This document shows, one piece after another, positions 32,240 through 38,995 of a DNA stretch of 64,000 nucleotides. The notes under the pieces are model-generated. The model made no database searches and had not been told where the DNA came from. It saw nothing but the letters and a program-made list of their open reading frames with translations. Location of the stretch: NCBI GenBank assembly GCA_963968165.1, contig CAXAFE010000012.1, positions 3,964 to 67,963 on the forward strand, in the 5' to 3' direction. Positions within the stretch are counted from its first letter, which is position 1, and each line of letters starts with the position of its first letter. A program made the position numbers and the translations under genes. The DNA is from an uncultured Candidatus Poseidoniales archaeon (GTDB taxonomy: Archaea; Thermoplasmatota; Poseidoniia; Poseidoniales; Thalassarchaeaceae).

Positions 32240-32500
32240 TTAAATTTTATTTTCTGAATCTAAAGTTCCTGGTCTTAGTTGCCAGACGCATATCTCGTAT
32301 CTTCCTGATAAGGCCCCACCTCTCTTTGTTGTAGCTATTTTTAAGATGTCTTTATCCTTTGATAAAACATTACCAAGTTGTTGTGGAGTAGTTCCATGCC
32401 TCATAGTTGAATTCACATGTTCTAATATTTCTGTAGTATTGGCTTCTCCTCTTAAATCTAAAAATTTTTTTATTTTTTGTCTTAATCTTGTTGTTCTCAT
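32240..32500 (-). CDS. Small putative winged-helix DNA-binding protein (paralog A)
   Basis: 86 aa. It shares with its neighbour the pattern I(K/R)KFL...(N)T(T/A)EI...(D)K(D/S)I(L/V)(K/R)I. Separated from the upstream paralog by 1 nt. Confidence 0.45.
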   Translation of the reverse strand: MRTTRLRQKIKKFLDLRGEANTTEILEHVNSTMRHGTTPQQLGNVLSKDKDILKIATTKRGGALSGRYEICVWQLRPGTLDSENKI

Positions 32501-32501
32501 A

Positions 32502-32777
32502 TCAATAACCTCCGTTGAAACCTTCGCTCATTTGCCGCCCATGATGACTTGCCCATTCTTTGGTGGCCCACTCTGAAAGTGCTTTGGAAGGATCGAAGAC
32601 GCCGCTGCTTCGAATTTCCCCTATACGAACAATTGATTTATCCGATTCAAGAAATTCTGCAATATTAAGATTTGTTGCTATATTCATTTTAGAAAGCCAG
32701 AAAGAAATTTCCGCAGTATTCCTAGGTTTATTTACCAAGAATTTTCTTATACTACTACGTATATTTTCTTCTAACAT
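32502..32777 (-). CDS. Small putative winged-helix DNA-binding protein (paralog B)
   Basis: 91 aa with the same layout as the 86-aa neighbour. Divergent from the 852-aa gene across a 257-bp AT-rich spacer. Confidence 0.45.
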   Translation of the reverse strand: MLEENIRSSIRKFLVNKPRNTAEISFWLSKMNIATNLNIAEFLESDKSIVRIGEIRSSGVFDPSKALSEWATKEWASHHGRQMSEGFNGGY

Positions 32778-32821
32778 ATTAATTACCTAATCAACAATCT
32801 AAGTCCGCGTAATCGAACCTC

Positions 32822-32841
32822 GTTTCACAGGAGAGCGGGGG
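32822..32841 (+). promoter_or_regulatory. Origin-recognition-box-like element with G-string
   Basis: TTTCACAGGAGAGCGGGGGG, compared with the remembered ORB pattern TTCCA-N2-3-GGAAA-N-GGGGG (two mismatches). It is a GC island in an AT-rich spacer. Confidence 0.3.
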
Positions 32842-32946
32842 GTAATATAATGCTTCTGTATATTATTACGATTATTAGTTACATATTGTTGCCAAAAAAG
32901 GATGATTTTTTGAAGAAGTTTATATTAAATGAATACAGCACTAAGT

Positions 32947-32958
32947 TTTCCACTAGAA
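32947..32958 (+). promoter_or_regulatory. Mini-ORB-like dyad
   Basis: TTCCACTAGAAA resembles the TTCCAGTGGAAA mini-ORB core. No G-string follows. Confidence 0.2.
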
Positions 32959-33034
32959 ATGTGTAACTTATTGTAACTATAATAGTAAATATTATACATA
33001 TAATTGATTTAGATTAATACGGAGGAGTATTCTA

Positions 33035-35593
33035 GTGTCTAATCATTTCAGTGGTAACTCTACAGGAGATGCAATTAATACACCAAAAAAGATCCGGAGT
33101 AAACATAGATTGAGAATGATGTTGAGGCTGTCTGAAGGAGAGGAGACAGTCAGTGATTTGGCTAAGTTAGTAGGATTAAGAGTGCCTCATGCATCAGCTG
33201 AAATAAGGAAAATGAGAGAAGAAAGTTTGGTAACAAGTGACCTACCAGTAGGATCTAGGGGTGCAAAAATGAGTTTAACAGATAATGGTTGGAATGTTTT
33301 GCAAACTGATGAATGGTCTAAAGCATTAGTAGCACTTCCTCTTCCACGTGAGATTGACAAATATACTATTTTATATCGTGATAAAACAGATATATTATTT
33401 GCATTTTTGGATAAACCAAACGAACCAATGATAATGATACCCGACCGCATGCCGGGTTCCACTGGAAATGATGGGGTTTCATGGAGTTGGGCCAGCCTTA
33501 ATGAATCCGGGCCTAGGTGGTTTAATTTGGATAGTATGGAAATAAGTTTGGAATCTCCCGTAAAGCCGGATCCCCAAAGTATTGATGCATATTCCAAACG
33601 ACCTCGAATAATAGGAATAATTAGAGGAAAAGTACTGAATAATAAAGCGGCAATAACAGCCTCAGTAGGTAAGTGGTTTAGCGCTCCTAGCGATAGGCAT
33701 GGAACTCCACTAACAGAAACCTCTTACCATAGAGGAATTTGGAAATTAGGTAAGAGTCATGAAATGATTCCATTGATAAAACCAAAAAACCCCATAGTAG
33801 GAATTATGAAAGATAGTTTGTATAAATCGATGCTACTAAGAACTGCCAAGAGAAATGCTTTGGTGATAGGAGATTTGAGAGGTTTGGATTCCGGAGGGAC
33901 AATGTATCCATTAGATGTACTGGAATACTGGATAGAAATTTCTCATCCGAGAATAACTATACAAGATAGAAAGAGAAGGTTAACAGCGCTAAAGGATAAA
34001 ATAGTAAGAAATAAACGTGTTAGAGTCTCAGATTCCACTTGGAGGAAATTCAGAAAAGATTGGGGGGCAAGTTCCTTTTCTCAAGAAAAATATTCAAAAA
34101 ATATAGATATTAGGGGGCTCAACAGGATTCCAATAGAGTCCCTGATTCGCTGGTCGATAGAAAATGAGAGTCATGTACCATTGGTTCTAGAAATTAAAAA
34201 TAAAATATCTGAAAGTACACTATCTCTAATCACATCTCACTCAAATTTGAGACTGATAATACTTGAGAATATGATATCAGGATTTGAAAATTATGACATA
34301 TTAGAGATGAATAAATTTAGACCATTGCCTTGGTTAAATTTCAGAACAAAAGATGGTACATTGCCATTAAAATTAATTGAAAGTCAGTATGAAGATGAAG
34401 AATATCAAAGTAAAGTTAAACTCACTGTAACGCCATGGGAAATAAGAAATATAGAAATGAAGAGTGATTTCATACCTGAAGAGTTAAATGAAGATTATTA
34501 TTCAATGGTAAAATCATCGATATCTCAATATCCCCTTGGCGATGAAGAATGGGCAAATCAAATAGAGGCCAAATATCCTTTAGCATCATGGATAGCATCA
34601 CCCCCCTCTGGTAGATGGCCAAGGTGGCAAAGATTGAGAAATAGACTTGATTCAGAATGGTTAGCACTACTTGATCTGGATCATTTGCCAATTGAAAGAT
34701 TGGTTGAAGTGGCTAATGAAGCGCCTATTTCTGTTCTAAATATATTTTCTGAAGAAATGAAATACAAATTAAGGGAAGATTCAGATATTTTTTTACGATC
34801 TAGGCCTGCAATAGATTCCAATAGCGCGTCGCCTGGCGTTTCATGGATAGCAGGTCAATTCCTTTCCAGTGTTGCTTGGATGCCGGAAAATATACATAAT
34901 GACATTCTAGAATGGGCAATAAATGCTTGGGTTAAAAATCCACCAATTGACTCTCTTCAAGCAATTAAAGGCATTTATTGGCTTTACAACAAAGAACAAA
35001 AAAATAGAATTAAATTAGATGAGATGATGATGAAATTTAAAAATAAAAATAAAGATATATCTGATGATAATATATTAAAAATTTGGTCAGATATGATTGA
35101 TATGATAGTCGAAAAAAAGGAATTAAAAAAACAGGATTTACAATTGGTTGTAAAAAGATTACCTCCAGATTGGTGGGCGATACATGCTCAAAATTTACTG
35201 CGAAAGGCGTTGAAGAATGAGAATATGAAATGGTTATTAAGCATGGATCTACCTTGGTGTTCAACGATAATGAGAAGGAAGGGGGAGGAGGTGGATGTCC
35301 CGGGAATTTCTTCAAAAAATCACCCAGGTTGTGATTTTTCCATATATGATGATTTGAAGATGGAGATATCTAATATTGAAAATAATTCTATTCTTGATTT
35401 ATTTGAATCTTTACATTCCTCAATTAATATGGTCAAACCCAAGATAGGCAGGACTCATGAGTTAGTTGGATGGCTTGCCCAACCTATCGAAAAATGGCCT
35501 GATTTTACTCAAAAGGAAATATCAAATGGAGAAGTTGATATTATGAAGAGAATTATGCTTAGAAAGACTAGTTTTTCATATAAAAAAAATTAA
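33035..35593 (+). CDS. Large orphan protein with N-terminal ArsR/MarR-like winged HTH
   Basis: GTG start 8 nt after GGAGGA. Residues ~25-70, RLRMMLRLSEGEETVSDLAKLVGLRVPHASAEIRKMREESLV, fit an HTH. The remaining ~780 aa are W-rich and helical toward the C-terminus, with no motif I recognise. Confidence 0.6.
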   Translation: MSNHFSGNSTGDAINTPKKIRSKHRLRMMLRLSEGEETVSDLAKLVGLRVPHASAEIRKMREESLVTSDLPVGSRGAKMSLTDNGWNVLQTDEWSKALVALPLPREIDKYTILYRDKTDILFAFLDKPNEPMIMIPDRMPGSTGNDGVSWSWASLNESGPRWFNLDSMEISLESPVKPDPQSIDAYSKRPRIIGIIRGKVLNNKAAITASVGKWFSAPSDRHGTPLTETSYHRGIWKLGKSHEMIPLIKPKNPIVGIMKDSLYKSMLLRTAKRNALVIGDLRGLDSGGTMYPLDVLEYWIEISHPRITIQDRKRRLTALKDKIVRNKRVRVSDSTWRKFRKDWGASSFSQEKYSKNIDIRGLNRIPIESLIRWSIENESHVPLVLEIKNKISESTLSLITSHSNLRLIILENMISGFENYDILEMNKFRPLPWLNFRTKDGTLPLKLIESQYEDEEYQSKVKLTVTPWEIRNIEMKSDFIPEELNEDYYSMVKSSISQYPLGDEEWANQIEAKYPLASWIASPPSGRWPRWQRLRNRLDSEWLALLDLDHLPIERLVEVANEAPISVLNIFSEEMKYKLREDSDIFLRSRPAIDSNSASPGVSWIAGQFLSSVAWMPENIHNDILEWAINAWVKNPPIDSLQAIKGIYWLYNKEQKNRIKLDEMMMKFKNKNKDISDDNILKIWSDMIDMIVEKKELKKQDLQLVVKRLPPDWWAIHAQNLLRKALKNENMKWLLSMDLPWCSTIMRRKGEEVDVPGISSKNHPGCDFSIYDDLKMEISNIENNSILDLFESLHSSINMVKPKIGRTHELVGWLAQPIEKWPDFTQKEISNGEVDIMKRIMLRKTSFSYKKN

Positions 35594-37584: not shown

Positions 37585-38829
37585 CTACAATTGTGATTGA
37601 AGTTTATATTTGCCCATAGATGCTTCATTGACCAACGGTTCATGTTCACTCATCAGCGATATAGCATCGATTGCTTTTGGTATTGCTGAATTCACTTGTT
37701 TGCTTCTTCCCCCACGGCCCTTACTGACATTTCTAGCCATTATTAGTCCTAATGTATCCAGTTCGTTCAGGAGTGCTGAAACCCTCCTAGTTGTGAGTGG
37801 ATCTACTTGAATCTTGAAGCAAGCATCTGAATATGTACGATATATATCTCCAGTTATTATATTTCGTAAACCATTTTGTTCATTGAGACATACCGAAAAT
37901 AAAACTAATTTCTGATGTAATGGTAATGTTTTGAGGACTGGAGTTACTTGATCATATTCAAGTTGACTTTGTGCCATCTTAACGTGTCTAGTATCTACCT
38001 TGATCTGAGAACTTTGTTCCGCTTTTTGTACTGAAATACGTAGGAGATCTAATGCCCTTCTTGCATCGCCGTGTTCTTGTGCGGCCAGTGCGGCACATAA
38101 ATCAACTACCCCGGTTTTTAATACCTCTAATTTTAACCCAGTCTCTACTCTCTCGGAGAGTATATTTTTTATTTCTAATGCTCCATAAGGATGAAAGACA
38201 ATGTCTTCTTGACTTAATCTTGATGTCACCCTTGGATCTAATTGTTGAGTAAAATTCAAATCGTTACTTATTCCAATTATACAACATCGAGCATTTTTTA
38301 ATCTAGTGTTAAGATTTGTTAAATTATACAGCAACCCATCGCCGGCCCTCGAAACTAAATTATCGATTTCATCAAGGACTATTATGTGGACTCCTCCGAG
38401 TCTATCCATTCGATGTATTAGAGTGTCTAGGACGCGATCGGTTGGCCATCCAGTGAATGGAATTACTTGGTCTCCTCTTTCATTAAGTTGGGACGCCATA
38501 TATTGGACAACTCTGTATTTAGTATCAATACTTCTGCAATTAATTTCATAGGTGCAGACATTCTGATTTAACTCACTACCTTTCTCTCTGAGTTGCGCCA
38601 ATACATACCTTGTTACTACGGTCTTACCAGCCCCTGGTACACCATATAGTAGCATATTTGAAGGAATATGCCCTTGTAATGCATCCACTAGATTTTTTAC
38701 TAGTGAACCAACTTCGTGTTCACGGTGTGGAAGACGTGAGGGTTCGAAGCCGTGTTCGAATGCTTTTCTATCAACAAACAAGCTTTCTTGTCCGAGAATT
38801 TTTTCAAAAATATTCCCATCCATAATCAA
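37585..38829 (-). CDS. cdc6: Orc1/Cdc6 replication initiator
   Basis: AAA+ Walker A YGVPGAGKT, Walker B IIVLDEIDNL, sensor regions, and a C-terminal winged helix (...LNELDTLGLIMARNVSKGRGGRSKQ). Confidence 0.95.
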   Translation of the reverse strand: MIMDGNIFEKILGQESLFVDRKAFEHGFEPSRLPHREHEVGSLVKNLVDALQGHIPSNMLLYGVPGAGKTVVTRYVLAQLREKGSELNQNVCTYEINCRSIDTKYRVVQYMASQLNERGDQVIPFTGWPTDRVLDTLIHRMDRLGGVHIIVLDEIDNLVSRAGDGLLYNLTNLNTRLKNARCCIIGISNDLNFTQQLDPRVTSRLSQEDIVFHPYGALEIKNILSERVETGLKLEVLKTGVVDLCAALAAQEHGDARRALDLLRISVQKAEQSSQIKVDTRHVKMAQSQLEYDQVTPVLKTLPLHQKLVLFSVCLNEQNGLRNIITGDIYRTYSDACFKIQVDPLTTRRVSALLNELDTLGLIMARNVSKGRGGRSKQVNSAIPKAIDAISLMSEHEPLVNEASMGKYKLQSQL

Positions 38830-38995
38830 TCAAAGCCGTTATTATTATACTATAAAGCACATATTTATCTTACCTAGTAAATTGCGCGCAAGCATATGTC
38901 TTCAAGCGAGTAAGTCAAAGATAATAAGTGTGACTTAGGAGATTGAATTATGAACAATTTTTATGCACCTTAAATAGGAAAAAAAAACATATTAA

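Follow-up and report, generated by a model that had tools for sequence, protein, structure and literature searches.

The analysed stretch of DNA (the window, 64,000 nucleotides) spans positions 3964-67963 of contig C12 in a 1.6-Mb, 48-contig assembly of 36% GC from an uncultured Marine Group II archaeon belonging to MGIIb (Poseidoniales, Thalassarchaeaceae). The relatives of its Orc1/Cdc6 initiator protein, at 76-91% identity, are all Marine Group II archaea (Poseidoniales, Thalassarchaeaceae). Positions 32778-33034 form a true non-coding spacer of 257 bp, with divergent genes on either side. The preliminary description had listed this gap as one of the two longest non-coding ones of the window; the other, larger "gaps" contain ORFs. 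The surrounding genes, and the region upstream of orc1/cdc6 that was compared with the gap for origin recognition boxes (ORBs), are as follows.

Positions 32240-32777, minus strand: a tandem pair of DUF3860 genes, of 86 aa and 91 aa, which point away from the gap.
Positions 32502-32777, minus strand: DUF3860a, the gene of the two that adjoins the gap.
Positions 33035-35593, plus strand: gene for an orphan 852-aa protein with a GTG start and an N-terminal ArsR/MarR-type winged helix.
Positions 37585-38829, minus strand: orc1/cdc6 initiator gene (Pfam Cdc6_C, Cdc6_lid and AAA; NCBIfam TIGR02928, E=6.5e-116).
Positions 38830-38995, no strand assigned: region upstream of orc1, without ORB-type boxes, its sole conserved block being CTTATTACC..TCGC.

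The DUF3860 pair (Pfam PF12976, E=8e-39 and 3e-15) matches PDB entry 2OD5, a "hypothetical protein" (E=1e-28), and its placement beside the gap is kept order-wide. Together with the 852-aa gene on the other side, three genes of winged helix-turn-helix (wHTH) type thus flank the gap. The 852-aa gene, which follows a Shine-Dalgarno sequence GGAGGAG at 33021-33027, was found in 41 of 41 relatives. Residues 23-67 of its product match Pfam HTH_5, and an AlphaFold model of the protein has a mean pLDDT of 85 and a pTM of 0.54. Beyond the N-terminal wHTH, no match was found in Pfam, in NCBIfam, among PDB sequences, or in a Foldseek search of the AlphaFold model against the PDB. Thirteen tryptophans of the protein are invariant across the order.

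Within Thalassarchaeaceae, the loci long enough to show it share the gene order CysJ-MBL-Orc1-g187-PPAT/DUF359-g73-852aa-[gap]-DUF3860-FBA-GlpX, and the synteny between orc1 and the gap is conserved in those orc1 loci long enough to reach it. The gap itself measures 239-258 bp in 42 family loci, although the flanking 852-aa protein drops to ~42% identity. Directly upstream of orc1, where the preliminary description had seen no comparable boxes, we likewise found none in this genome or in 52 syntenic loci; TCCANTGGA occurs neither at 38830-38995 nor in any of these loci. This MBL-orc1 gap is 166-221 bp long in the same genus and close relatives. In most other Thalassarchaeaceae it extends to ~385-420 bp, with a ATTATATATA box at its start and without a long ORF, and may there contain a small RNA or a small gene.

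Conserved elements within the gap

In an alignment of 43 distinct family gaps, 64 of the 257 columns are at least 90% identical, and these columns are clustered in blocks. The resulting elements are listed from left to right.

Positions 32823-32843, plus strand: motif 1, TTTCACAGGAGAGCGGGGGG(T), with the family-conserved core AGGA..GCGG..GGT at 32829-32843 (the G-box).
Positions 32845-32860, minus strand: ATATAA box (conserved block 32845-32850) and TTCTG block (32854-32858), a putative TATA/BRE of the leftward (DUF3860) promoter.
Positions 32878-32883, no strand assigned: conserved block GTTACA, inverted relative to the TGTAAC elements at the right side of the gap, which it copies.
Positions 32884-32946, no strand assigned: variable AT-rich spacer, with no conserved columns in the 43-gap alignment and with its length nearly kept.
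Positions 32947-32959, no strand assigned: mini-ORB TTTCCACTAGAAA (conserved block TTTCCA..GAAA), the dyad core of the Orc1/Cdc6 origin recognition box, without a G-string.
Positions 32963-32985, plus strand: GTAAC-N5-TGTAAC followed by TATAATAG, a candidate for the rightward BRE/TATA or for a factor-binding repeat.
Positions 32968-32977: conserved block TAAATGTAAC.

Two strings had originally drawn attention to the gap as a possible displaced replication origin. Both are present, at positions one base off from those first given, with TTTCACAGGAGAGCGGGGGG at 32823-32842 and TTCCACTAGAAA at 32948-32959. The first of them, motif 1, had been read as an ORB differing at two positions from the archaeal pattern. 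As our ORB reference we used the "common" motif of Ori-Finder 2, TCCA[CG]T[TG]GAAA[TC][GA]AAGGGGT (PMC4164010, Table 1), from which motif 1 departs at 7 of 20 positions in its best register; this is chance level, and 3,342 sites in the genome are as good. Its AGGA and GCGG are 98-100% conserved across the 43 family gaps. The core AGGA..GCGG..GG is nevertheless conserved within Thalassarchaeaceae only, and the G-run is kept in a subset of the family and is absent in MGIIa and distant genera, the MGIIa counterpart of this stretch reading ...CGAGGccGCTCATATAACC. Because the match to the consensus is at chance level and the G-run is lost elsewhere, we regard motif 1 not as an ORB but as a lineage-specific element beside a TATA-like box. 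Its AGGANNGCGGNNGGT occurs once in the genome. Motif 1 was also considered as a reversed or degenerate ORB and rejected as such, since a by-eye comparison with the candidate origin on contig C1 (described below) aligned only the G-run and the TATAAT stretch.

The adjacent ATATAA box is 100% conserved in the 43 family gaps, and ATATAAC is retained in most other genera and families examined; together with TTCTG it may constitute the promoter of the DUF3860 genes. GTTACA reaches 99% conservation in the family, and GTTAC(A/C) recurs in MGIIa and most other genera. Towards the 852-aa gene, the family conservation of TAAATGTAAC is 92%, ATGTAACTA(n)TA is retained in MGIIa, and TRTAACTWAWTGTAAC has a single occurrence in the genome. 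Here GTAAC-N5-TGTAAC/TATAATAG is a candidate promoter or factor site, and a conserved putative TGTAAC-TATAAT element, itself ~50 nt ahead of the Shine-Dalgarno sequence and start codon, follows 13-25 nt downstream of the mini-ORB. Judged from the sequence, the parts of the gap that are conserved order-wide fit divergent promoters, with ATATAA(C) as the putative leftward element and TGTAAC-TAnnTA plus the Shine-Dalgarno sequence as the putative rightward one.

The stretch between motifs 1 and 2 (32843-32946) had been called extremely AT-rich and proposed as an unwinding element. At 76.9% AT it is ordinary for this genome, where a 104-bp window of equal or higher AT content occurs in 32% of 175 intergenic gaps; no unusually AT-rich unwinding element was found in the gap, and the inter-ORB spacer of contig C1 reaches 80.5% AT. 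A non-coding RNA in the gap was rejected, as no Rfam match was obtained at gathering score or at E<=10, no tRNA was found, and RNAalifold gave no consensus structure for the conserved left leader. The DUF3860a leader (32778-32830, minus strand) carries in many relatives a short GC-rich hairpin-like dyad, for example GGGCCCAGATTGGGCCC or GTGGCC..GGCCAC, of which the copy in the window is weak. A repeat search within the gap returned one weak 27-nt inverted repeat and nothing else. A sigma-70 promoter scan, which is not applicable to archaea, gave matches at chance level and was discarded. The mini-ORB plus TAAC..TGTAAC pattern had no match in IMG/VR viral contigs, and a mobile-element origin module was rejected.

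Origin recognition boxes at the locus and elsewhere in the genome

Motif 2, the mini-ORB, matches 11 of 12 positions in the 12-nt core of the common ORB (PMC4164010). With 93 sites in the genome at one mismatch or fewer from this core, such a sequence is not rare in itself; what makes us consider the mini-ORB real is its conservation at one and the same place in the alignment. Indeed, it is found there with at most one mismatch in 30 of the 43 distinct family gaps, and its halves TTTCCA and GAAA are 97-99% conserved in the family. Among the other genera and families examined, the majority, MGIIa among them, carry (y)CTCCAsTGGAAAT and then TAACTwwATGTAAC at 55-115 nt ahead of the 852-aa gene; two distant MGIIb genera and the one genome of a third family gave no such element. 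The earlier reading of motif 2 as a mini-ORB-like dyad therefore stands, and with it the claim that a box of Orc1/Cdc6 type lies ~4.5 kb from orc1/cdc6.

A scan for the dyad plus G-string revealed a complete box inside the neighbouring gene.

Positions 33457-33477, plus strand: full ORB TTCCACTGGAAATGATGGGGT, in codons 141-148 of the 852-aa gene, matching the common ORB at 19 of 20 positions.

Apart from this coding ORB, only one site in the genome comes within one mismatch of the common ORB. The coding ORB lies ~500 bp downstream of the mini-ORB (497 bp between them, consisting of promoter and coding DNA). Its polarity is that of the right-hand ORB of the C1 pair described below, and its G-string points away from the palindromic mini-ORB. 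All relatives have, at the DNA level, TCCAnnrGAAnnnAnGGGGT at its position. A codon alignment of 41 of the 852-aa genes provided 133 conserved columns with four-fold or six-fold degenerate codons, and the two columns with the lowest codon entropy were Gly147 and Ser142, ranked first and second. Gly147 is encoded by GGG in 38 of 38 cases (GGG makes up 19% of the gene's Gly codons) and Ser142 by TCC in 39 of 41 (TCC share 16%). The coding ORB also falls within the windows of lowest third-position entropy among 832. It is thus under synonymous-site constraint, that is, purifying selection. In the AlphaFold model, confidence within the N-terminal half is lowest for the block of residues 141-150 (pLDDT 62), which fits a predicted loop with a sequence dictated by the DNA element.

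The search for further boxes was extended genome-wide, with a strict ORB consensus against 41 relatives and a looser one against six genomes in full. Besides the box in the 852-aa coding sequence, canonical ORBs were found at the mcm promoter and as an inverted pair.

Contig C17, 33043-33062: mcm-promoter ORB TCCAGTGGAAACAAAGGGGT, ~60 nt upstream of mcm, matching the consensus at 20 of 20 positions.
Contig C1, 5998-6018, minus strand: left-hand ORB of the inverted pair, CTCCAGTGGAAATTATAGGGT.
Contig C1, 6173-6193, plus strand: right-hand ORB of the inverted pair, TTCCAATAGAAATATAGGGGA.

All six fully scanned genomes have these four canonical ORBs at three loci, and the stricter pattern gave supporting matches in 29 of 41 genomes. 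Reversed-pattern controls gave no matches in the search of 41 relatives, and 2 as against 26 true ones in the six-genome search. The 745-aa ORF beside the C17 box carries MCM Walker motifs, and the single mcm-promoter ORB is conserved in both MGIIb and MGIIa. The C1 pair (region C1:5932-6210) is located between purL and a small 4Fe-4S ferredoxin gene and flanks a 154-bp spacer; the separation of the two boxes is given as 145-175 bp. No initiator gene lies beside this pair. A different array, of (G/A)CGTTAA boxes with several ~11 bp apart, occurs at C19:15700-15870 of the same assembly, upstream of a 605-aa AAA+-like gene, and a second Orc1 paralogue (24% identity) lies 4.5 kb beyond that gene. 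The array near this second Orc-like gene was rejected as a skew-defined origin, the skew being uniform in C19 and in G009:C1:~202-208 kb, a contig of the same-genus relative G009.

These boxes bear on the possibility that the gap is an operator for its neighbouring winged-helix proteins, the 852-aa protein and/or DUF3860, which would regulate their own genes with TTTCCAsTGGAAA and GTTACA/TGTAAC as their sites and without Orc1. Three wHTH-type genes do flank the gap, and GTTACA with the two (T)GTAAC copies forms a conserved inverted arrangement with a separation of ~94 bp, for which ORB biology offers no explanation. The G-box, in addition, is positioned between a putative TATA element and a gene, where archaeal repressors would typically bind. 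The coding site, however, is a complete ORB with a GGGGT G-string, of the same type as the origin and mcm boxes, and the mini-ORB has the same dyad, so that a single shared binder, Orc1, is the simplest account. An operator of this kind is accordingly quite improbable as the explanation of the whole locus.

Strand asymmetry and the chromosomal origin

The raw GC skew of the window only follows gene orientation, and we therefore used a strand-corrected GC3 skew, in which the skew on the coding strand is split into a transcription term (~+0.135) and a replication term, rho. Within the genus the replication term is strong, |rho| being mostly 0.07-0.21 per contig, with one clear sign each. On the contig of the window rho is +0.117 (SE 0.022, n=35 genes) to the left of the gap and +0.134 (SE 0.027, n=27) to the right; it is positive throughout, and no change point was detected. 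At the homologous locus of G009 (contig C2, 364 kb, same genus) the corresponding values are -0.101 (SE 0.012, n=107) and -0.098 (SE 0.010, n=172), and in contig C19 of G002, also of this genus, the skew is uniform over the 160-kb stretch examined around the homologous locus. No switch in strand asymmetry is thus found at the gap in any of these three contigs.

The inverted ORB pair behaves differently. On C1, rho flips from plus to minus at the pair (t=5.7), and in G009:C4 it goes from +0.108 to -0.139 in the 10-kb bin that holds the pair. The same plus-to-minus flip is seen in the 10-kb bin holding the pair in G010:C1, and a weaker one occurs at the pair in G026, a complete 2.06-Mb MGIIa genome. 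No skew switch was found at the mcm ORB (G010:C1 at 260 kb). Genes also diverge from the pair, with +2/-14 versus +13/-4 in G010 and +7/-18 versus +14/-11 in G009, and genome-wide the G-poor strand carries 56.6% of 1,216 genes (p=5e-6). From the flip in rho, the gene divergence and the preference of genes for the G-poor strand, we infer that the switch at the ORB pair marks an origin, with a relatively G-poor leading strand. The inverted pair on C1 is therefore the best candidate for the chromosomal origin. The polarity of the skew, in this genome and in G009, G010 and G026, is opposite to the bacterial rule, as the gene-preferred strand leading away from the pair is G-poor at third positions (rho ~-0.13).

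These data decide against the proposal of the preliminary description, which had itself named a skew inflection elsewhere as its refutation, that the gap is the principal chromosomal origin, displaced 4.5 kb from orc1. Its attraction lay in ORB-type boxes close to orc1, in a non-conserved AT-rich spacer, and in an orc1 upstream region without boxes of its own; proximity to the initiator gene is common at origins, though not obligatory. The skew inflection, however, maps to the inverted pair on another contig, where strand bias and gene direction both turn, and the two sides of the gap have the same polarity in three genomes. Moreover, motif 1 fails as an ORB, the AT content is unremarkable, and two inverted ORBs around an AT-rich element, the layout of C1:5998-6193, are absent from the gap, which has one mini-ORB only. 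That the gap is the main origin is thus extremely improbable.

A minus-to-plus switch was observed in G009:C1 at ~125-135 kb, ~230 kb from the ORB pair. The corresponding region of our assembly is the reversed start of C2 joined to C8:1-13 kb, and in its C2 the counterparts of G009:C1:100-108 kb and 495-524 kb are joined. Such a switch so near the pair means that the replichores are very unequal, that a rearrangement took place, or that a second origin lies in an assembly gap. Any such second origin would not be at the 852-aa locus, because polarity is uniform over the 364 kb in which that locus sits.

Only initiation that is frequent over long times is recorded in skew, and a rarely used origin leaves no mark. 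Could the locus then be a second origin that is dormant, conditional or of low frequency, or an auxiliary locus that titrates or recharges Orc1? Orc1 at both boxes would load MCM under special conditions, or would buffer the initiator near its own gene, much as datA and DARS titrate and recharge DnaA in bacteria. We rate this as possible though unlikely. Canonical ORB elements 4.5 kb from orc1 speak for it, as do the shared polarity of the full ORB and the right-hand ORB of the C1 pair and the replichore geometry of G009, which hints that one origin may not suffice. In Sulfolobus, moreover, the initiator WhiP gives a ChIP peak within its own ORF (PMC3607249). Against it, neither a sign switch nor a step in skew magnitude occurs across the locus in three genomes; as a rough estimate, the missing |rho| step limits habitual firing at the locus to less than ~15-20% of cycles. 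There is also only one ORB with a G-string, no inverted pair surrounds AT-rich DNA, the AT content of the spacer is ordinary, and the 497 bp between the boxes are promoter and coding DNA.

Predicted control of the locus by Orc1/Cdc6 and its relation to known systems

With strand asymmetry not switching at the gap, we favour an initiator-controlled promoter over an origin. Since the mini-ORB sits a short way ahead of the putative rightward promoter and the full ORB follows ~500 bp downstream, we read the locus as a probable Orc1-bound control region of the 852-aa gene and possibly of the DUF3860 pair, comparable to the mcm promoter. On balance, then, the gap is somewhat more probably than otherwise a non-origin control region bound by Orc1/Cdc6. 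The boxes match the published consensus and are under purifying selection, including at synonymous sites, and the locus lies away from the skew switch. That Orc1 is the binder, how and in which direction it regulates, what the intragenic box does and where the promoters lie are predictions drawn from these patterns.

In the proposed mechanism, the gap would be shared by divergent, lineage-specific sets of DNA-binding genes, the two DUF3860 genes to the left and the 852-aa wHTH gene to the right. Orc1/Cdc6, encoded 4.5 kb away, would bind the full ORB, a box of high-affinity type, and have a weaker hold on the mini-ORB. The level or nucleotide state of the initiator would thereby be coupled to how strongly the 852-aa gene, and possibly the DUF3860 pair, is expressed, whether by promoter occlusion, by an intragenic block to transcription, or by a DNA loop that joins the boxes. 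This initiator would also act at the mcm-promoter ORB, and replication would be fired at the inverted pair on C1. The mcm-promoter ORB argues for a second role of the initiator, as a transcription factor, in these archaea. It is unusual for a regulatory site to lie 420 bp into a coding sequence, and the proximity of orc1 together with a nearby AT-rich spacer would give an origin the same appearance. An auxiliary site inside a gene does have a parallel in the lac operator O2 within lacZ. The GTTACA/TGTAAC elements and the family G-box are not explained by Orc1 and may be sites of the flanking wHTH proteins, the alternative first offered for the gap.

This predicted control region can be placed against what is known of archaeal initiators. 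In Sulfolobus, both inverted ORBs around the AT-rich element of oriC1 are required (PMC12141716). Sulfolobus Orc1/Cdc6 proteins also occupy many non-origin sites in ChIP-seq, for which a role in transcription has been proposed (PMC3607249), and Orc1-2 is a DNA-damage regulator (PMC9738581). With oriC1-type origins (Sulfolobus oriC1, Pyrococcus oriC, Aeropyrum) the locus shares box sequences that match at 19/20 in the gene and 11/12 in the core within the gap, a G-string, and an orc1/cdc6 gene nearby; it differs from them in that no inverted pair sits at an unwinding element, one box is intragenic, and the locus is off the skew switch. The non-origin sites of Sulfolobus islandicus (Samson et al. 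2013, PMC3607249) resemble it in that initiator-family proteins act away from origins with a presumed effect on expression. Here, however, the putative sites are canonical ORBs of origin type and not a distinct promoter motif, and the boxes are fixed at mcm and the 852-aa gene across the whole order. Haloarchaeal origins that are dormant or under negative control, such as Haloarcula hispanica oriC2 with its downstream ORB cluster (PMC4010727), provide a further likeness, as ORBs near an orc gene may modulate rather than drive initiation. Haloarchaeal origins, by contrast, have multiple ORBs flanking orc and proven ARS activity, whereas the present locus has one full and one mini box, recognized from sequence. 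A conserved, conditional second origin or an initiator buffer beside orc1, comparable to bacterial datA and DARS, is a possible though unlikely alternative; one Orc1 site would then be kept inside a gene, and Poseidoniales would have separated the start of replication, at the ORB pair, from the control of the initiator, at this locus.

The uncultured Marine Group II archaea rank with the most abundant archaea of the plankton. The literature that we searched contained no description of their replication origin. Three ORB-bearing loci could be mistaken for it, and the inverted pair alone sits on the strand-asymmetry switch; automated origin finders that rely on ORBs near orc1 would therefore misplace the origin in Poseidoniales. 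If our favoured reading is correct, the 852-aa locus and the mcm-promoter box would form a small Orc1/Cdc6 regulon built of origin-type boxes, and this regulon would include a box within a coding sequence that is held intact by selection on synonymous sites.
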